Source: a virus (taxonomy: Duplodnaviria > Heunggongvirae > Uroviricota > Caudoviricetes). From it: a DNA stretch of 8,544 nucleotides. Positions 438 through 8,544 of this stretch are shown here, piece by piece; position 1 is the first letter of the stretch; each line of letters starts with the position of its first letter. Below the pieces are notes generated by a model that saw only the letters and a program-made list of their open reading frames with translations, had not been told where the DNA came from and searched no databases. The stretch is taken from positions 1 through 8,544 of IMG/VR virus record IMGVR_UViG_648276648_000007; one strand, 5' to 3'. Both the position numbers and the translations under genes were made by a program.

Positions 438-989
438 AAATGATGACGCAGGAAACTTTTTATAAAGCGTGGAAACAGCAACATCATAGATGATTGCAAC
501 CTGCTTACGGGGGATGCCATTCTCCAGCAATCGACGCATTTGCTGCCATGTTTCTTCTTGGTATTTAGGCCGACGGCCTCCTATTCGACCTTCTGCGCGA
601 GCTGCATCAAGTCCAGCGCGTGTACGTTCAACGATAAGCTCACGTTCCATTTCTGCCAGCGCCCCCATTACGTGAAAGAAAAAGCGCCCCATTGGTGTAC
701 TGGTGTCGATGGAGTCAGTGAGACTCCGGAAGTTAATTCCTCTGTCACGCAGCTCCTCCACCAGCACAACCAAGTGACGCATGCTGCGCCCAAGACGATC
801 TAACTTCCATACGACCAGGGTGTCACCTCTGGAAAGCATACGCAAAACCTTTCTTAGCCCAGGGCGTTCAGCCTTTTTGCCGCTCGCCTTATCCTCAAAA
901 ATTAGCTCACATCCTGCGCTTTCAAGGGCATTTCGTTGTAAAGCAGTGTTTTGTTCATTTGTTGATACGCGTACATAGCCTATTAGCAT
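429..989 (-). CDS. cin: Serine recombinase, DNA invertase of the Cin/Gin/Pin/Hin family (186 aa)
   Basis: The ORF translation begins MLIGYVRVSTNEQNTALQRNAL and contains VVWKLDRLGRSMRHL, GINFRSLTDSIDTSTPMGRFFFHVMGALAEMERELI and C-terminal IPRKQVAIIYDVAVSTLYKKF, near-identical in pattern to Cin/Gin/Pin/Hin. Catalytic Ser is S9 in YVRVST. The symbol cin is chosen from the P1-like neighbourhood; pin or gin orthology cannot be excluded without alignment. Confidence 0.95.
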   Translation of the reverse strand: MLIGYVRVSTNEQNTALQRNALESAGCELIFEDKASGKKAERPGLRKVLRMLSRGDTLVVWKLDRLGRSMRHLVVLVEELRDRGINFRSLTDSIDTSTPMGRFFFHVMGALAEMERELIVERTRAGLDAARAEGRIGGRRPKYQEETWQQMRRLLENGIPRKQVAIIYDVAVSTLYKKFPASSFQS

Positions 990-1116
990 ATTTTCTGCTC
1001 ACTATCGTTATTTATAGCAAGCTGCGGATTTTAATTAACAAAAACCAGTATGTGTGGAAATCACAAAGTACATACCGTTTCCCAATGATATTTAATTCAC
1101 TATTAAGGAAATAGTT
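990..1116. promoter_or_regulatory. Divergent intergenic promoter region between the invertase gene (leftward) and the lyd/dar-type operon (rightward)
   Basis: 127 bp AT-rich spacer between two divergently oriented start codons; AGGA sits 7 nt upstream of the ATG at 1117. Exact -10/-35 elements were not assigned. Confidence 0.4.
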
Positions 1117-1398
1117 ATGTGTGATTTCACAATAATGCTCCTCTCCATCCTTGGCGGGGTGCATTCGTTTCTGAATGGGGTTCGTGAAAAACGTTACGAA
1201 GCGTCATGCAGGCAATTGATGGCCGAGTGTATTGCTGCCGTACTTGCAGGCTTTATAGGCATGTATTTCGCGGAATATAAGGGTATGGATGAAAGTCTTC
1301 AGAATTGCGTGACTATTATTTGCAGCATCAATAACAGGCTCATTCTTGAAAAGTTACAAAGGATTATCGATTCGCACCTCAATAGAAATGCCTCTTAA
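1117..1398 (+). CDS. Small two-TM membrane protein, holin-like (LydC-like position), 93 aa
   Basis: Two hydrophobic segments (IMLLSILGGVHSFL and IAAVLAGFIGMYF) followed by a charged C-terminal tail; AGGA RBS 7 nt upstream; same architecture as the next ORF. Confidence 0.6.
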   Translation: MCDFTIMLLSILGGVHSFLNGVREKRYEASCRQLMAECIAAVLAGFIGMYFAEYKGMDESLQNCVTIICSINNRLILEKLQRIIDSHLNRNAS

Positions 1399-1465
1399 GC
1401 AACAAATGACCGGTTGAGAAGTTACTTTGCATACCATTACCTCCTGACAACGTAGGAGGGAACTT

Positions 1466-1795
1466 GTGCTTGACACACAGGAATTAGCTCCAGTTGCTAT
1501 TGCGCTCCTGCTTTCAGTAATTGGTGGGATAGGCACGTTCCTGATGGATGTCCGAGACGGTCGCCAGTCTGGCAATTTGTTAGGATTGGTTACGGAGATC
1601 TTTGTTGCAGTGACAGCTGGCGCGGTGGCGTACCTATTGGGGCAACACGAGGGCTGGGAGTTATCAATTACGTACTTAATGGTAACGATAGCCAGCAATA
1701 ACGGTCATGAGGTGATTTCAGGGATGAAACGAGTGAATATCGATAGCATTCTGAATGTTCTTACAAGTTTGGTGAAAAAGGGAGGCGGGAAATGA
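1466..1795 (+). CDS. lydA: Two-TM holin-like protein (LydA-type), 109 aa, GTG start
   Basis: Strong RBS AGGAGG at 1454-1459, 6 nt before GTG at 1466. Two TM segments (LAPVAIALLLSVIGGIGTFLMDV and IFVAVTAGAVAYLLG) separated by a short charged loop. The symbol rests on position next to cin and on size, as I recall the P1 order cin-lydC-lydA-lydB. Confidence 0.6.
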   Translation: MLDTQELAPVAIALLLSVIGGIGTFLMDVRDGRQSGNLLGLVTEIFVAVTAGAVAYLLGQHEGWELSITYLMVTIASNNGHEVISGMKRVNIDSILNVLTSLVKKGGGK

Positions 1796-2235
1796 TTGGC
1801 TGGGGTGTATGCGTTCTTGCGTTAGCCTTAGCCGATCGCTATTTGCTAAAACGCAAGGACATCACGCACTTAGAACTTGGTGATGTGGAAATTAAACCGG
1901 GTTTCATCCGGGTGCCGTTCAAATACCGGTCTAAATTCCCGTTTTTGCGCGGCGCAACGGTCAGATATTGGATCCGCGATGTTCAGAAGCCGACGACAGT
2001 GATTGAAGGCGAACAACGTTGTCTGACGTCGGCTGAACAGGGCGAAAACAGTGAATGGTTGTACATACCCACTGAATATATGGGTAAAGGAGAGCGACTG
2101 TGGCATTTCAACGTCATGGTTACGCATGGCGACTCGTTCATTAACCCGTTGTATCGGATTTTCCCTGTTACTCAGCAAATCCGCAGAAGTTACGTAATAA
2201 ATCTCGCACAGGATGTGTCAGATGACGAAAAATAA
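1792..2235 (+). CDS. lydB: 147-aa protein with N-terminal hydrophobic anchor or signal sequence, candidate antiholin (LydB-like)
   Basis: ATG at 1792 overlaps the stop of the previous gene (ATGA coupling); GGAGG RBS at 1781-1785; N-terminus MIGWGVCVLALALA is hydrophobic. Assignment is by synteny and size only. Confidence 0.5.
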   Translation: MIGWGVCVLALALADRYLLKRKDITHLELGDVEIKPGFIRVPFKYRSKFPFLRGATVRYWIRDVQKPTTVIEGEQRCLTSAEQGENSEWLYIPTEYMGKGERLWHFNVMVTHGDSFINPLYRIFPVTQQIRRSYVINLAQDVSDDEK

Positions 2236-2824
2236 GTATGCAACGGTCGATTTTGACCAGGTTAATGAAAAGGGGCTGAAATCCCTTATCGCGGCGATCA
2301 ATAAAACCGGGGTTACGGTAATTGAGGTTGACTCCAGCAACCGCGCAACAACGAAAGATGGCGTTAAAGTTAAAACCGCAAAGCTGGTTCTTAACGACGG
2401 ACAAATTCTTGCCATACAGGTAAACGATACTGGCGATATATCGTCTGTGAAGCTGAATGGAAAAGCTATTCCTAACGCTCAGTCGCCGGATATCAAGACG
2501 CTTGGTACCGTCATGGGGCAAGCGGCCAGCAAAAACTCCGCAAAATTCCAGAAATCACTGATCGCCAAAGCGAAACGTGTTGCCAATCCGGTAGACAAGA
2601 AACCGGCAGTAAAATCCAACTTTCAGCGCCTGCAAGAGGCAAAACAGCGGAATGCTCAGGTGGTTGCCGCTTATAAGTCCGCGCAGAATTCGGTGTCTTT
2701 CAATCAACAGCAGATCACTGATTTGCGGGCGAAGCTGGATACGGAGACGGGCCGACTCAATAACGAAAAGGCACGGAATGGCGAACTCAAACGTCGTCTT
2801 AAGCAACTGAAAGCAGGAAATTAA
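2213..2824 (+). CDS. hdf: Hdf-like protein (homolog of DarA fragment), about 200 aa
   Basis: Overlaps the end of the upstream gene. Carries the block ...LNDGQILAIQV...KNSAKFQK followed by a Lys/Gln-rich coiled-coil tail, which recurs in the next, larger gene. An alternative start at ATG 2222 has better spacing to AGGA at 2209-2212. Confidence 0.7.
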   Translation: MCQMTKNKYATVDFDQVNEKGLKSLIAAINKTGVTVIEVDSSNRATTKDGVKVKTAKLVLNDGQILAIQVNDTGDISSVKLNGKAIPNAQSPDIKTLGTVMGQAASKNSAKFQKSLIAKAKRVANPVDKKPAVKSNFQRLQEAKQRNAQVVAAYKSAQNSVSFNQQQITDLRAKLDTETGRLNNEKARNGELKRRLKQLKAGN

Positions 2825-2825
2825 C

Positions 2826-4745
2826 ATGGAACAGTTCAATATCAATAAAGGGGTGACGATCAAGCCTGGGCTTGACGTACTTCCCCCGCCAGTGACTGAT
2901 GATGAATATCGCGCATTAATGGCCGGAGAGGACCGCTATCTGATGACGGAATCCAACACCCTGGAGGAAATCGAGGCTACGTTCTTCTATGACACGCCGA
3001 TCCACTGGTGTGCTACGGATTTACTGGAGGCGATTAGTTCTACTCGTTTGCAGTTACACCGGACCATGCAGGCATTTGTCCGGGCATTGAACCAGAAGCT
3101 GAATGGTACCGGAATCTCTGCGGGGAGTGATAAAACGGGGGATGTGGCCCAGAGCGGCGCGCGAGCGATCGGCGGCGCTGAAATTGGCCGGGCACGTAAC
3201 GTTAACGGGCTGCCGGTCCTGCCAGCCATTATCCCGCTCAGTGATGGTCAGACTATCAGCATTCTGTTTCATAGCCCGACAGCGGAAAACCGGATCACCA
3301 ATAGCGATACGCTGGTTGCTTTCCAGTTCTTACTGAATAAAAAAGACGTTACTCACACCGTTGCTCCGATGAGTGGACGTGATATGACGCTGGCGCAGGT
3401 CACCATGAAACTTGCCAACCTTGCAGAGAAAAACTCGGCAAAATTCCAGCGTGCGCAGAAGAAGAAAAAAGCCCTGGTTGATGAAATAACCCAACTACAG
3501 GCTGACAGTGACCAGAAAGAGGATGCCATGAGCGACCTCGCGGATCAGGTGGCAGCGGTAGAAGGCCAGAAGGCAGATCTGGAGCAGAAAATTAACGCAG
3601 TTGCTTCGGAAGCGGATTCTCTTTATCAAGAAAATGAGCGTTTGCAGGCGGAGATTGATCAGCTCAATCGCACTGGTGGGCGCGATACCATTGCTCCAGC
3701 GGGGATGACTGGTGGGCACTCTCTCGCGCTGACGGATCGCCTTGCCAGTATCAAAAATCGTATGCATATGGACGGGGAAGCGACGCTCAGTAATGGTGCA
3801 TTAATGAAGCAATTCATTGGGGACGGCGAAGGGTATATCCAGTTAACCGATCCGGATGGCAGCGTGTACATGATCAAGGCTAAATCCATACAGGGTGTGG
3901 ACATGACAGATGCGATCGGCAAGCTGTTTAAAGCCTATAAAGCGGGTAATGTATCGGAATATCTGGTCCAACCAGAAGAACCTAAACCGGAAAACGTCGA
4001 ACCTGAACCAGTGGAGGATACCGGCAGCTCTTCGCCTGAACCAGAAGTCTCTGTAGGCGCATATCGATATGCCCTGCAAATGCGTCCGGCGGCCCCTGGC
4101 GCGATACCTGAAGGTAACAAAGCAATTCTGCCGCGCCCTGATAAAGGTGACCCGTATTATGAATACGCGCGCTACGGCATTGTTACTTACGATACCCCGC
4201 TTTCTGATCAGCAAATGAGTGAGTACGACCTGAAGTTATTGCCTCGCGAGGATTCTTTCGACTTCCTGGCGAAGACACTTACTAATGGTCCGTTTGGCAA
4301 ATATGCACAAAAAGCTCTGGAGCTGGCCACCAGCTCACCAGACGAGTTCCGCGTAATGCTGAAAACTCAGTTTCAAAAAACTTTCCCCAATATTGCGTTT
4401 CCGGGGGGCGCTGGCACCGAGAAAATGGTGCAGAGCATGATCAATGCATTGCAGGCCGAAGTCGGTGAGATTACTCAGCCAGAACCGGCCCCGGCACAGC
4501 CTGATGAAACGGTTAGCGAAGCAGATGCAGAGGCTAATAAAGCCATTGAATATCTCAATAGCGTGATGGATATGCAAAGCACTGACATGGCGGAGATCCG
4601 TAATGCCCGGGGTAATGCCCGGGAAGCGATTGCAGCCCTTCAGGCTGCCGGGCGTTTTGAGGAAAACGAAGAGCTGGTTAATGGCGCTGCTCGCCACCTG
4701 GCTGATCTGCTGGTAGCAATCCAGAAAGCGGGGGTAGTGGCATGA
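2826..4745 (+). CDS. darA: DarA-like capsid-associated anti-restriction protein, 639 aa
   Basis: Starts 1 nt after the hdf-like stop with AGGA 7 nt upstream. Multi-domain: N-terminal region, the Hdf-shared block around KNSAKFQR (nt 3429-3449), a long coiled coil (about nt 3450-3670) and two Pro/Glu-rich linkers. Size and position match what I recall for P1 DarA. Confidence 0.7.
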   Translation: MEQFNINKGVTIKPGLDVLPPPVTDDEYRALMAGEDRYLMTESNTLEEIEATFFYDTPIHWCATDLLEAISSTRLQLHRTMQAFVRALNQKLNGTGISAGSDKTGDVAQSGARAIGGAEIGRARNVNGLPVLPAIIPLSDGQTISILFHSPTAENRITNSDTLVAFQFLLNKKDVTHTVAPMSGRDMTLAQVTMKLANLAEKNSAKFQRAQKKKKALVDEITQLQADSDQKEDAMSDLADQVAAVEGQKADLEQKINAVASEADSLYQENERLQAEIDQLNRTGGRDTIAPAGMTGGHSLALTDRLASIKNRMHMDGEATLSNGALMKQFIGDGEGYIQLTDPDGSVYMIKAKSIQGVDMTDAIGKLFKAYKAGNVSEYLVQPEEPKPENVEPEPVEDTGSSSPEPEVSVGAYRYALQMRPAAPGAIPEGNKAILPRPDKGDPYYEYARYGIVTYDTPLSDQQMSEYDLKLLPREDSFDFLAKTLTNGPFGKYAQKALELATSSPDEFRVMLKTQFQKTFPNIAFPGGAGTEKMVQSMINALQAEVGEITQPEPAPAQPDETVSEADAEANKAIEYLNSVMDMQSTDMAEIRNARGNAREAIAALQAAGRFEENEELVNGAARHLADLLVAIQKAGVVA

Positions 4746-5107
4746 CACTATCAGCTATTGAGTTAATGGATCTCAGCGATAAGTTGGATGCTCTGATGTC
4801 CAAAGCGGCGACCGCGAGTGGCATGGAGTTGCTGGATATCAGCGATGAAATTGACCAGATCATGCAACAGATGGGGTACGGCGCATCCGGCAGCGGTAGT
4901 GGCGAGGAAAAACAACCTTCGGTGCATGATGGTGTGCCAAAACTGGTTGCTGATTTCCTGGCTGATAAATTCGTCGATCAGAGCACCGATGCATTTATCG
5001 GTACGTTGCAGGACTTAAGTCAATATGTTGGCACATACATCGACCTGGACCAGGTTAAACAGCACACGGCGGCATGGATAGCCGCCAACATTAAAGAGGC
5101 GGTATAA
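4742..5107 (+). CDS. ddrA: Small acidic protein, DdrA-like, 121 aa
   Basis: ATGA start/stop overlap with the darA-like gene; Asp/Glu-rich with a GASGSGSGEE linker; size and position match my recollection of P1 ddrA. Confidence 0.6.
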   Translation: MTLSAIELMDLSDKLDALMSKAATASGMELLDISDEIDQIMQQMGYGASGSGSGEEKQPSVHDGVPKLVADFLADKFVDQSTDAFIGTLQDLSQYVGTYIDLDQVKQHTAAWIAANIKEAV

Positions 5108-5119
5108 GGCGTAACAGGG

Positions 5120-6808
5120 ATGAGTTTAAACGATCAGATAGTTATGGCCACCAGCAGCGGATACAACGGTGTTGCGCCATATACCAGCTTGCTATTACAT
5201 CGGGCATCCGGCATCAAAGACATTATTCATCTGATCAGGCTGCTTTCCCGAACAGATCCCCAGGATGAACAGCTTGTACAAGTGCTTGCGCATTTTGTTC
5301 GAATGCCTGTTGCCGACGTGAATAAATGGTGCCGATTATTCGGTATCAGCAATTCGTTACTTCGCGGCTTGTTAAATCACGCATCCTCCCTTGGGCGCGA
5401 TGGCTTTGACGAGATAGCGCAGGCGATAAAAAACGGAGATATGCCACCAGCTATTGACTGGTTTTCCATTCGCCCAACCAGGGTGAAAGCATTCCTTAGC
5501 GCGGCGCATTCGGCATCACCATTGGCAGAAATGGTTCAGAGGTTGTCGCTCATATTCACAGACCATACCGCGTTGGGTGATCTGACTCTGGACGAGATGA
5601 AAGAAGCCTCCATTCAGTGGGCCGATCAACAAAATGAGGTTAACTCAGACTTCTTGCCAGCATTCAGGAAGGCCGTTATTAAAGCGGATGATGCCCGTGG
5701 AATTCTGAAGGCATTTAAGGCATTGCAAAGTCGGGTTAATAAACATGTCGGTGATATCGATGGGGTAACGGCGGAAGGCAGGGATATCCTTAAAGAGCAC
5801 GGCATAACGCCAGAGTTTATTGATGAGATCAGGACTGATATGCAGCGTGAGGTCGTATCGTCCCTGCAAATTGTAGCCAGAGCGTTGGCGGATGCTAATC
5901 CGAAGAGTGCGGCCATTGTTAACCGGGTTATTGGTGATATTGAAGCATCGGAGGGCATGGGGGCGCTGAAACTCTTCCTTTCGCGAGCGTTTAATCCTAA
6001 CGGCAATATTCTCCCTGGCATTATTGGTGAGGCTAAAAGGTATGTCAGTGAAGAAGAACTTGAGCAGCTTGACCAACTACTTAAGCGATTCTCATATAAC
6101 CCGCAGACACGCTGGCAAATGAATCAGCGAAGAATGGGTTCGGTCCACGAGAAAGTGTTATCTGCCATGAACAGTGCGATCGCAAACTCATCCGTATCTG
6201 AAGAAAAAGCTCTTGAGTGGGCCGACTCTTTTATCACGGAAGAAGTGGAAGAAGCCCGCGCTGGACAGAATGGTGGGATAGACCTGCGCAAGGAACTTGC
6301 TGATATTTATCGCCTGACCGGCGGTAAAATTTCGACCTTATCAAAGGTGGTTCACCACCAGGGAAGGGCATATGCAAATCTTAATGGTGTTGTTGCTGTC
6401 AATTTGAACGATGAAAATGCAAGTGCACTGTGGCACGAGCTGGGTCATCATCTTGAGTACAGTAACCCTGGTTTGTTAGAGAAAGCCCGGTCATTCCTGA
6501 AGGCCAATGTTGAAGGGGATAAGCCATCTTTCGTTAATATCGGTGGGCGTGGCAAGCCTGAATGGTGCTTCAGATCTCGATTGAGTAATATTTATATGGC
6601 GAAGGTATACCCGCCAGCCTCAGTAAGTAACACCGGGAAAATTCGGCAGAAATCACCGACTATTTCCAAAACGTCAGCAACGGAAGTATTCTCTATGGCT
6701 CTTCAGTTGTATCATGACAAAGAGGCCGCTGCCGCATCACTGATGAATGGTGACGGATTGCTGGAACTGTTATTAGGTGTGGCAAAGGAGCTAAATAATG
6801 CAGATTAA
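5120..6808 (+). CDS. Uncharacterised 562-aa protein with a single HExxH zincin-type motif (HELGH, residues 439-443); occupies the ddrB position
   Basis: Long clean ORF in the operon's codon context; WHELGHHLEY is encoded at nt 6431-6460; the rest is largely helical and charged. I cannot confirm similarity to P1 DdrB from memory, and I recall DdrB as considerably larger. Confidence 0.85.
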   Translation: MSLNDQIVMATSSGYNGVAPYTSLLLHRASGIKDIIHLIRLLSRTDPQDEQLVQVLAHFVRMPVADVNKWCRLFGISNSLLRGLLNHASSLGRDGFDEIAQAIKNGDMPPAIDWFSIRPTRVKAFLSAAHSASPLAEMVQRLSLIFTDHTALGDLTLDEMKEASIQWADQQNEVNSDFLPAFRKAVIKADDARGILKAFKALQSRVNKHVGDIDGVTAEGRDILKEHGITPEFIDEIRTDMQREVVSSLQIVARALADANPKSAAIVNRVIGDIEASEGMGALKLFLSRAFNPNGNILPGIIGEAKRYVSEEELEQLDQLLKRFSYNPQTRWQMNQRRMGSVHEKVLSAMNSAIANSSVSEEKALEWADSFITEEVEEARAGQNGGIDLRKELADIYRLTGGKISTLSKVVHHQGRAYANLNGVVAVNLNDENASALWHELGHHLEYSNPGLLEKARSFLKANVEGDKPSFVNIGGRGKPEWCFRSRLSNIYMAKVYPPASVSNTGKIRQKSPTISKTSATEVFSMALQLYHDKEAAAASLMNGDGLLELLLGVAKELNNAD

Positions 6809-7109
6809 AATCGCAGCGCCATTAGGCGGAGATGCCATTATCGAATTTGATGATAATGAAGAAGTTTCCGGGCGTTTAAGCATTATCTCCGGTGACATTA
6901 CCGAGGACATGATCGCTGAAGCCATAGCTGGGGCAAATCCCAATAGCTATATGGGATTCGTTAACACCCTTGATGCTCCCGCAAGTGATGTTCTCCGAAC
7001 GCTGCATCTTTACGCTGGCTGGTTTGTTGATTGGCCAGCAGTAGATGGTGGCGATGATGACGACGACGATGATGATTTTGGTGATCATGTAGACCAGATC
7101 GTATATTAA
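6798..7109 (+). CDS. Small, very acidic protein, 103 aa, with a C-terminal run of eight Asp
   Basis: AGGAG RBS at 6786-6790, 7 nt before the ATG; overlaps the end of the 562-aa gene by 11 nt; eight consecutive Asp codons at 7053-7076; roughly 25 acidic against 3 Lys/Arg residues. Confidence 0.8.
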   Translation: MQIKIAAPLGGDAIIEFDDNEEVSGRLSIISGDITEDMIAEAIAGANPNSYMGFVNTLDAPASDVLRTLHLYAGWFVDWPAVDGGDDDDDDDDFGDHVDQIVY

Positions 7110-7850: not shown

Positions 7851-8192
7851 ATGAAAAAAATCACAGTGGCACTCTCTGCGGTTGCAGCATCTGTCCTGAT
7901 GGCAATGTCTGCGCAAGCAGCTGAAATCTACAACAAAGACGGTAATAAACTGGATCTGTACGGCAAAGTTAACGCAGAACATTACTTCTCTTCTTCAGCT
8001 AGTGATGACGGAGATAAGACTTATGCTCGTCTGGGATTCAAAGGTGAAACTCAGATTAATGACCAGTTAACCGGTTTTGGTCAGTGGGAGTACGAATTTA
8101 AAGGTAACCGTACTGAATCTGAGGGCTCTGATAAAGATAAAACTCGTCTTGCATTTGCTGGCCTCCGTTTTGCTGATTATGGTTCAATCGAC
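7851..8192 (+). pseudogene. nmpC: General porin of the NmpC/OmpD/Lc (OmpC/OmpF superfamily) type; 5' fragment of 114 codons, interrupted by IS26
   Basis: Signal peptide [23 protein letters not shown], then the classic mature porin N-terminus [17 protein letters not shown]...[26 protein letters not shown]...[17 protein letters not shown]. The frame then runs 8 codons into IS26 (GTVANSRW) and stops. The symbol is tentative: the signal peptide most resembles NmpC/Lc as I remember them. Confidence 0.85.
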
Positions 8193-8206
8193 GGCACTGT
8201 TGCAAA
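8193..8206. repeat. IS26 14-bp terminal inverted repeat (IRL)
   Basis: GGCACTGTTGCAAA at the exact point where the porin reading frame is broken. Confidence 0.9.
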
Positions 8207-8255
8207 TAGTCGGTGGTGATAAACTTATCATCCCCTTTTGCTGATGGAGCTGCAC

Positions 8256-8544
8256 ATGAACCCATTCAAAGGCCGGCATTTTCAGCGTGACATCATTCTG
8301 TGGGCCGTACGCTGGTACTGCAAATACGGCATCAGTTACCGTGAGCTGCAGGAGATGCTGGCTGAACGCGGAGTGAATGTCGATCACTCCACGATTTACC
8401 GCTGGGTTCAGCGTTATGCGCCTGAAATGGAAAAACGGCTGCGCTGGTACTGGCGTAACCCTTCCGATCTTTGCCCGTGGCACATGGATGAAACCTACGT
8501 GAAGGTCAATGGCCGCTGGGCGTATCTGTACCGGCCGTCGACAG
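8256..8544 (+). CDS. tnpA: IS26 transposase Tnp26 (DDE, IS6 family), N-terminal 96 codons, truncated by the window edge
   Basis: Translation MNPFKGRHFQRDIILWAVRWYCKYGISYRELQEMLAERGVNVDHSTIYRWVQRYAPEMEKRLRWYWRNPSDLCPWHMDETYVKVNGRWAYLYR matches Tnp26. The last codons read PST rather than the AVDS I recall (see findings). Confidence 0.9.
   Translation, partial: MNPFKGRHFQRDIILWAVRWYCKYGISYRELQEMLAERGVNVDHSTIYRWVQRYAPEMEKRLRWYWRNPSDLCPWHMDETYVKVNGRWAYLYRPST

Follow-up and report, generated by a model that had tools for sequence, protein, structure and literature searches.

Why do two adjacent and strongly diverged phage genes share a stretch of 21 nucleotides that differs at a single position? 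The question arises from a preliminary description of an 8,544-nt stretch of DNA from a Caudoviricetes record (IMGVR_UViG_648276648_000007; hereafter the window), in which a 203-aa open reading frame is followed by one of 639 aa. Both frames lie where that description placed them (Table 1), and the near-identity of 20/21 nucleotides is real: the two stretches are codon-aligned and both encode KNSAKFQ. The same description offered two explanations, strong constraint on the peptide and local gene conversion, which are weighed below.

Table 1. Features of the hdf-darA locus (positions are those of the window).
Feature	Position	Strand	Remarks
hdf CDS	2213..2824	+	203-aa ORF; 98% identical to P1 Hdf at protein level
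DarA_N domain of Hdf, residues 13-109	2249..2539	+	Pfam PF18788
hdf core, KNSAKFQ, Hdf 107-113	2531..2551	+	AAAAACTCCGCAAAATTCCAG; inside predicted helix 94-124
Hdf C-terminal alpha-helix domain, residues 135-203	2615..2821	+	AF2 helix; aligns to DarA 222-282
darA CDS	2826..4745	+	639-aa ORF; annotated darA in P1
DarA_N domain of DarA, residues 66-204	3021..3437	+	Pfam PF18788
darA core, KNSAKFQ, DarA 202-208	3429..3449	+	AAAAACTCGGCAAAATTCCAG; putative donor
DarA long alpha-helix / coiled-coil, residues ~205-285	3438..3680	+	pairs with Hdf helix; aligns to Hdf 141-201
DarA_C domain, residues 411-472	4056..4241	+	Pfam PF18789, E 2e-17; without counterpart in Hdf

The window comes from a P1/P7-like phage-plasmid, of which it covers the cin-lydCAB-hdf-darA-ddrA-ddrB region; its genes run cin-lydC-lydA-lydB-hdf-darA-ddrA-ddrB-hxr, and P1, P7 and JL22 match it at 97–99% identity across 80–93% of its length. 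The shorter frame is hdf (a name that we take to stand for ‘homolog of DarA fragment’), annotated as such in P1 and JL22 and as odaE in P7; its product matches PHROG 1620, ‘Hdf-like antirestriction’ (E 2.8e-79), and PDB chain 9ukm_H (E 1.9e-120). DarA matches chain 9ukm_I, ‘Defense against restriction protein A’, over residues 1–639 (E 0). Synteny 3′ of lydA-lydB and close identity to P1 place the genes in the Dar operon of punaviruses (hdf-darA-ddrA-ddrB). Bacteriophage P1 itself (NC_005856; hdf is P1_gp025 and darA P1_gp024) has the same gene order at 97.6% nucleotide identity, and the 21-nt cores, the domain content and the solved chains (PDB 9UKM, 9VZ0) are the same. Substitutions relative to P1 are few, an example being Hdf residue 106 (S in the window, R in P1). 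The window also carries an in-frame deleted allele of the neighbouring ddrB and, at its right end, a porin gene interrupted by IS26, in which it resembles JL22 and P7 and not P1. Translation of hdf probably begins with the ATG at 2222, for a product of 200 aa rather than the 203 aa annotated in P1: an AGGA (2210–2213) lies 8 nt 5′ of this codon, and most Hdf homologues in the databases are 200 aa long with the N-terminus MTKNKY.

The paralogy of Hdf with an internal part of DarA is already known: it is stated in the gene name, in Pfam and in the 2026 cryo-EM paper, and the DarA-N domain was defined from DarA and Hdf (Iyer, Burroughs, Anand, de Souza and Aravind, 2017). Our analyses support it. 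Both proteins exceed the Pfam DarA_N gathering score of 27 bits and span profile positions 2–122 of 122 (Hdf, E 1.9e-21, 76.6 bits; DarA, E 1.8e-42, 144.5 bits), and hhalign of the Hdf family against the DarA family gave probabilities of 97.1% (E 5.3e-11) and 98.2% (P 4.4e-14). The well-aligned region pairs Hdf 42–201 with DarA 120–282; the counterpart first proposed, DarA residues ~135–280, is roughly right, if too short at the N-terminus, where the Pfam domain begins at residue 66. Nor does the homology depend on the shared heptapeptide, the outcome that the preliminary description had named as refuting it. With the motif removed the profile signal stays, both for the N-domain alone (hhalign, P=1.1e-5) and for the C-terminal helix alone (P=1.6e-7). 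Smith-Waterman alignment of Hdf with DarA after deletion of the motif gave z ∼3 (4/500 shuffles), against z ∼1 for the C-terminal helices taken separately; because such pairwise statistics are too weak by themselves, we relied on profiles and structure. A DarA-only HMM ending before the motif scarcely told Hdf N-domains (8–11 bits) apart from shuffled decoys, which scored up to 8.7 bits, and was not used.

Structure prediction of Hdf points to a shared fold. In the AF2 model (pLDDT 82.7) the N-terminal part has the alpha+beta arrangement of DarA_N – a helix (23–30), strands at 36–41, 46–48, 51–60, 65–71 and 75–81, and a further helix (94–124) that holds KNSAKFQ – followed by a C-terminal helix (136–200). 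Solved DarA chains were the only significant PDB matches by Foldseek (9vz0_I, E 6e-6; 9ukm_I, E 1e-5; probability 1.00), the next match having E 0.04. The long helices differ in orientation, which keeps the global TM-score to these chains down to ∼0.4. The signature of Iyer et al. (2017), a conserved Asp and an Asn-x-basic motif, is present in both proteins as DGQ in each and as LNGK in Hdf versus LNKK in DarA; Hdf D62, N82 and K84 and DarA D140 and N171 are invariant or aligned across lineages. KNSAKFQ is not among these signature motifs: it is found at the C-terminal margin of DarA_N, and its conservation is confined to DarA orthologues. Beyond DarA_N and the long helix (residues 199–283 give weak matches to coiled-coil families), DarA carries a penton-binding domain, the C-terminal DarA_C and, at its N-terminus, a propeptide that is cleaved off. 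Taken together, it is virtually certain both that these genes are hdf and darA of a P1/P7-like phage-plasmid and that they are paralogues.

The two products also work together. Cryo-EM entries 9UKM and 9VZ0 (2026) show 55 DarA-Hdf pairs within the capsid, the helices of the two proteins forming a parallel heterodimeric bundle anchored to the inside of the capsid where pentons and hexons meet; DarA_N of DarA is the ‘hexon binding domain’ of the solved structure, in which Hdf residues 135–203 were modelled (PMC12810830). The pair contacts DNA, is required for loading the other Dar anti-restriction proteins and contributes to head-size determination (PMC12810830). Packaging into the virion, pairing under the capsid and protection against type I restriction are described in PMC12810830 and PMC9024508, and DarA and Hdf function is also covered in bioRxiv 10.1101/2025.11.26.689930. 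The proteins of the window are 98–100% identical to those studied there.

Against this background of ancient divergence the core stands out. The hdf copy lies 898 bp upstream of the darA copy; six of the seven codons are identical and the single difference (TCG/TCC) is synonymous. The flanks have diverged, as the preliminary description noted: nucleotide identity is 36.8% across the other 181 aligned codons, and even the codons bordering the core differ (upstream, AGC versus GAG; downstream, AAA versus CGT). When codon columns were shuffled, 19 of 100,000 permutations yielded any seven-codon window with at least 20 matches (p ∼2e-4). Searching the window for the 21-mer with at most three mismatches returned these two sites and no third copy, where none is expected by chance.

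To place the core in an evolutionary context we compared 24 hdf-darA pairs from ∼13 lineages; every one of the 24 intact loci, which come from Enterobacterales, Aeromonas, Vibrio and Shewanella, has hdf directly 5′ of darA. The identical core was found only in P1 proper. Within genomes, the hdf and darA cores differ by 1 nt in three P1-type sequences; they differ at 8–17 of 21 nt in the other 19 pairs of the main comparison, which share 0–4 of the seven residues, and P33 and P42, pairs that joined the comparison afterwards, have best windows of 13/21 and 14/21 matches. Restriction of the 20/21-nt core to the P1 lineage, as judged from these pairs, appears to be new; the paralogy itself is known.

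Could shared ancestry and chance suffice, the core being the most conserved piece of DarA_N, in which the P1 pair happened to keep or hit upon the same codons? F112 of Hdf and F207 of DarA are invariant, both families often have N and K, and in the JK004 and L027 pairs, too, the best-matching windows fall at the core position (13/21). However, 20/21 is far beyond the empirical maximum of 15/21 that 21 non-P1 pairs gave across ∼3,700 seven-codon windows, in addition to the shuffling result given above, and synonymous sites elsewhere in the paralogues are near random, with 37% identity and the same codon in 14 of 35 columns of identical residues. Retention of codons since the ancient duplication is ruled out, since DarA orthologues differ at synonymous sites within the core (AAT/AAC, AGC/ACT/TCG, GCA/GCC/GCT, CAG/CAA). 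We regard chance with shared ancestry as improbable.

The first of the two explanations originally offered, constraint, holds for DarA and fails for Hdf. DarA E201, N203, K206 and F207 are invariant, and E-[KRN]-N-[ST]-x-K-F is kept in all DarA orthologues examined. In the corresponding Hdf motif F112 alone is invariant, other lineages having NNSVKFR, SNSLKFQ, RGATSFQ, AGQARWE and the like. P1 isolates themselves include the Hdf variants KNAAKFQ and KSSAKFQ, and five types of variant of the hdf core occur in the P1 populations of IMG/VR; because Hdf varies at the core even among P1 isolates, plain constraint does not account for the match. The darA core is also variable in IMG/VR (TTC to TTT in four contigs, GCA to TCA in one), and at the TCC/TCG site hdf has TCC in 80 of 80 contigs and darA TCG in 70 of 70.

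These population data bear equally on the idea that the 21-mer is an element at the nucleotide level, for instance a protein- or RNA-binding site or a recombination site lying within both genes. The nucleotide identity itself, and nothing further, speaks for such an element; it would be missing from every non-P1 lineage despite the same operon, both of its copies vary within P1 populations, the window holds no additional copy, and no hdf-darA deletion fusion from recombination across the repeat was found in IMG/VR. We consider it highly improbable.

The second explanation, local gene conversion, fares better and has moderate support. Diverged paralogues or quasi-repeats are known to undergo gene conversion over short tracts, or templated mutagenesis, and in known cases, as here, a patch of near-identity is specific to a lineage and donor and recipient can be told from orthologues. 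The orthologues suggest darA as the donor. In L027, the nearest sister lineage, DarA has KNSAKFQ (AAA AAT TCT GCA AAA TTC CAG) and Hdf has SNSLKFQ (AGT AAT TCG TTG AAG TTC CAA); judged from these sequences, the KNSAKFQ of DarA predates the split of P1 from its closest relative. P1 Hdf shows the DarA state at K1, A4 and Q7 and, synonymously, at K5, where it has AAA and six close Hdf orthologues have AAG. Across the core, P1 hdf differs from P1 darA at one site and from orthologous hdf at 7–10, while darA differs from orthologous darA at 2–5.

We thus lean towards short-patch conversion from darA to hdf as the best reading of the core. A single templated event, by micro gene conversion or template switching, would have copied ∼21 nt of darA over the matching codons of hdf in an ancestor of the P1 group, and one synonymous change (TCG/TCC) would have been fixed afterwards. 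The contrast between the tract (20/21) and the background of the same alignment (36.8%) is as expected of conversion. Codon choice is suggestive, not decisive: given the same peptide, the probability of at least six of seven identical codons is 0.028 from codon usage, and the same codon is used at 6/7 core positions versus 14/35 other columns with identical residues (Fisher p = 0.034).

Several observations temper this reading. The P1 paralogues are grouped together by a single parsimony-informative site (AAC versus AAT). A strict test for a burst of P1-unique sites in the hdf core found two such sites, one of which matches darA, and was not significant; the absence of a P1-specific burst lowers our confidence in conversion. 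Divergence of the hdf core from its orthologues (33–48%) shows no excess over the rest of the gene (31–36%). RecA-dependent conversion tracts are typically far longer than 21 nt; here no more than 21 nt would have been copied, an unusually short tract. Flanking homology suited to homologous recombination is lacking (∼37% identity), so that a templated event would have been based on microhomology rather than on classical conversion. The P1 core further differs from typical conversion in its borderline synonymous signal (p ∼0.03) and in the lack of repeated events: a search of IMG/VR for ongoing homogenization of hdf and darA found none, and the population variants move away from identity. Finally, the branch from P1 to its relatives (at least 21% amino-acid divergence; Hdf identity is at least 97% within P1 and at most 79% to the next lineages) is unbroken by any lineage sampled, and for this reason change in a single step and stepwise change look alike.

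Stepwise change is what convergence would entail: selection in the P1 lineage would have given the Hdf helix the heptapeptide of DarA, for example because both helices touch the same capsid, DNA or partner surface, with codons matched through preference and chance. Close Hdf orthologues already read x-N-[ST]-x-K-F-x, hence only ∼3 changes (K, A and Q) would be needed, and Q7 is also present in Hdf of the sister lineage, of D6 and of Citrobacter. AAA, TTC and CAG are the commoner synonymous choices among the genes of the window, the strict derived-site test was not significant, and the two proteins are physical partners. Yet none of the ∼12 other lineages has an Hdf that has come so close to its DarA (at most 4/7 residues shared), Hdf in P1 populations tolerates N-to-S and S-to-A within the motif, and the six matching codons (p = 0.028) include the non-preferred AAC and GCA, the latter at 28% usage. 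Convergence strikes us as a possible but rather unlikely account.

Our explanation of the locus as a whole, which we hold with good confidence, is that hdf and darA are ancient adjacent paralogues whose core in the P1 lineage probably arose by short-patch copying from darA to hdf. Its most specific form – a microhomology-templated patch of ∼21 nt in the P1 ancestor, possibly retained as an adjustment to docking of the pair on capsid or DNA – we put at even chances.

The paralogy claim adds nothing new, and the lineage-specific identity of 21 nt is a small evolutionary curiosity. Hdf 107–113 and DarA 202–208 nonetheless offer a cheap target for mutagenesis of the role of this helix turn in the DarA-Hdf capsid anchor. 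If the conversion reading is true, the core would be a natural case of ultra-short ectopic conversion, the two genes involved encoding the partners of a heterodimer, with one turn of helix made identical; and if the patch was templated, strongly diverged tandem paralogues in phages can still swap patches of a few codons.

P1, P7, JL22 and phi456 match the window at 97–99% identity over 80–93% of its length (Megablast against phage genomes). ORFs were assigned names from the P1 and JL22 annotations, and because these annotations map onto the window ORFs, the hdf and darA genes considered here are, judged by sequence, those of a P1-like phage-plasmid.

Genes assigned in the window, with positions and basis of assignment
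Feature	Position	Strand	Basis or remark
cin	429–989	minus	P1/JL22 annotation
lydC	1117–1398		P1/JL22 annotation
lydA	1466–1795		P1/JL22 annotation
lydB	1792–2235		P1/JL22 annotation
hdf	2213–2824		P1/JL22 annotation
darA	2826–4745		P1/JL22 annotation
ddrA	4742–5107		P1/JL22 annotation
ddrB	5120–6808		P1/JL22 annotation
hxr	6798–7109		P1/JL22 annotation
OmpD/OmpC-like porin gene, cut by IS26	7851–8544		right end of window

Several features of the map deserve mention. As annotated, hdf begins at ATG 2213, immediately next to the AGG of AGGA at 2210–2213; ATG 2222 has an 8-nt spacer from it and leaves a 14-nt overlap with lydB, equal to that in phage JK004. Most Hdf proteins in the databases have 200 aa and begin MTKNKY, and translation probably starts at 2222. 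The ddrB gene is an in-frame internal deletion allele (562 aa versus 995 aa in P1): five bases (5157–5161) stand in place of positions 5421–6724 of the P1 locus, so that the gene is 1299 nt (433 codons, about residues 13–445) shorter overall. Of 465 matching P1-like plasmids, 32 carry the identical junction at full coverage. The 103-aa ORF that ends in a poly-Asp run and overlaps the end of ddrB is not a fragment of ddrB; it corresponds to the P1 gene hxr, whose product is a putative Xre-like repressor. The porin gene, found in JL22 and P7 but absent from P1, is truncated after ∼114 codons, the IS26 end beginning at ∼8193.

The name hdf reportedly stands for ‘homolog of DarA fragment’, and the preliminary description had proposed that Hdf is a paralogue of part of DarA, at about residues 135–280. 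Pairwise comparison is marginal (BLASTP E 0.001 with 29% identity across 105 residues; Smith–Waterman z-score ∼3 with the motif KNSAKFQ deleted). The paralogy is nonetheless upheld by profile, profile–profile and structure comparisons. Pfam DarA_N matches both proteins as a complete profile well above threshold (Hdf 13–109, E 1.9e-21; DarA 66–204, E 1.8e-42), and the alignment of the two families gives 97.1% probability (E 5.3e-11) or, with larger alignments, 98.2% (P 4.4e-14). With the motif excluded, the N-domain alone (P 1.1e-5) and the C-terminal helix alone (P 1.6e-7) both align in the register of the full alignment; homology therefore extends beyond the seven residues. The AlphaFold2 model of Hdf (pLDDT 82.7) comprises a helix, several beta-strands, a helix (94–124), a loop and a helix (136–200), and its only significant matches in the whole PDB are the DarA chains 9vz0_I (E 6e-6) and 9ukm_I (E 1e-5), both with probability 1.00; the next match has E 0.04. 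The profile–profile alignment spans Hdf 42–201 and DarA 120–282, so the DarA segment first proposed was approximately right, but the alignment begins earlier and the domain reaches back to Hdf 13 and DarA 66.

Hdf is thus a paralogue of part of DarA, a reading that is correct but long known. The DarA-N domain was defined from these two proteins (Iyer et al.), and PDB entries 9UKM and 9VZ0 include both. The inner face of the capsid carries 55 DarA–Hdf pairs at penton–hexon junctions, each joined by a parallel bundle of the two helices; the pairs touch DNA and are lost upon ejection, and a virion from which either gene is deleted lacks every other Dar protein (PMC12810830). A second cryo-EM preprint agrees (bioRxiv 10.1101/2025.11.26.689930).

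The nearly identical core of the two genes is as first described: 2531–2551 and 3429–3449 match at 20 of 21 positions within diverged surroundings (36.8% nucleotide identity over the other 181 aligned codons). Both copies are in frame and encode KNSAKFQ (Hdf 107–113, DarA 202–208), the sole mismatch being a synonymous serine codon, TCC/TCG. A 20/21 match in any seven-codon window was reached in 19 of 100,000 codon-column shuffles, and chance is an improbable source of the identity. No further copy of the 21-mer was found in the window at up to three mismatches, where none is expected by chance either; that the core is a functional element at the nucleotide level seems very improbable.

The core was compared across pairs from Cronobacter phage JK004, phage D6, plasmids of Citrobacter, E. 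fergusonii, E. coli, Aeromonas, Vibrio and Salmonella, genome contigs of Pantoea, Chimaeribacter, Rosenbergiella, Shewanella and others, and two metagenomic lineages. In every intact locus collected hdf lies immediately upstream of darA, and the duplication is therefore older than the spread of P1-like elements over Enterobacterales, Aeromonas, Vibrio and Shewanella. DarA orthologues all retain E-[KRN]-N-[ST]-x-K-F, with E201, N203, K206 and F207 invariant. Hdf cores read NNSVKFR, SNSLKFQ, NNSQKFR, RNTAKFT, QNSQKFT, RGATSFQ, KGSTAFQ, RNQSKFD, AGQARWE and others, F112 being the only invariant core residue. Within a genome the hdf and darA cores differ by 1 nt in three P1-type sequences and by 8–17 nt in 19 other pairs (0–4 of seven residues in common); two pairs added late (P33 and P42) reach at most 13/21 and 14/21 matches in any window. 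Since the best match in ∼3,700 seven-codon windows of the 21 non-P1 pairs is 15/21, core identity is a peculiarity of the P1 lineage, not a family constraint. Strong constraint on the peptide, one of two explanations offered initially, is wrong for Hdf, whose core varies among orthologues and among P1 isolates: in 52 IMG/VR contigs anchored by flanks it reads KNAAKFQ in three and KSSAKFQ in two, with synonymous variants in two more, and Hdf tolerates core changes within P1 populations.

Three further observations concern the wider family. Codon 3 of the darA core (window 3435–3437; loci L003, L012–L014, L017–L021 and L027) is mostly an AGY serine across lineages; JK004, Salmonella, Chimaeribacter and P0042 have ACN (Thr) there, and P1, L027 and Rosenbergiella have TCN, apparently a serine codon-class switch whose threonine intermediate is still visible in sister lineages. 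At 800–3406 of the Xenorhabdus szentirmaii locus (L022) hdf and the 5′ part of darA have given way to an IS transposase; the residual 285-aa darA ORF retains ERNSAKFQR, and the locus looks like a decaying P1-like element. A stand-alone 160-aa ORF of Burkholderia vietnamiensis pBVIE05 (L011, 3408–3890), weakly similar to Hdf (36% over residues 34–113) and on a betaproteobacterial plasmid without lydAB context, suggests that DarA_N proteins exist outside P1-like elements.

The closest sister lineage of P1 (L027, Hdf 74% identical) bears on direction. Since its DarA core is already KNSAKFQ (AAA AAT TCT GCA AAA TTC CAG) and its Hdf core is SNSLKFQ (AGT AAT TCG TTG AAG TTC CAA), the DarA peptide is ancestral and the P1 Hdf state derived towards it. 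The derived state extends to K5 of the P1 Hdf core, which is AAA as in darA, a synonymous difference from the AAG found in each of six close Hdf orthologues. Local gene conversion, the second explanation offered initially, is plausible and somewhat supported at synonymous sites. The same codon is used at 6 of 7 core positions versus 14 of 35 other aligned identical residues (Fisher p = 0.034), and for two copies of one peptide, under the codon usage of the window genes, the probability of at least six of seven identical codons is 0.028. Selection-driven convergence combined with codon preference might also yield such a core, but we consider it less likely. Against conversion, the flanks of the core lack homology and the tract could be no longer than 21 nt; the core of hdf is 33–48% diverged from its orthologues, no more than the rest of the gene (31–36%); and of two core nucleotides unique to P1 hdf among close orthologues, one equals darA. 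The TCC/TCG difference is fixed (hdf TCC in 80/80 contigs, darA TCG in 70/70), and IMG/VR contigs yielded neither population variants moving towards core identity nor an hdf–darA fusion across the repeat. Conversion is not proven, and no sign of ongoing homogenisation was found in IMG/VR. Weighing the synonymous sites against the missing flanking homology and the other points, we lean slightly towards an ancient, single event in which a microhomology-templated short patch would have been copied from darA into hdf. The locus is well characterised, and the lineage-specific identity of the core is one minor footnote to its evolution.
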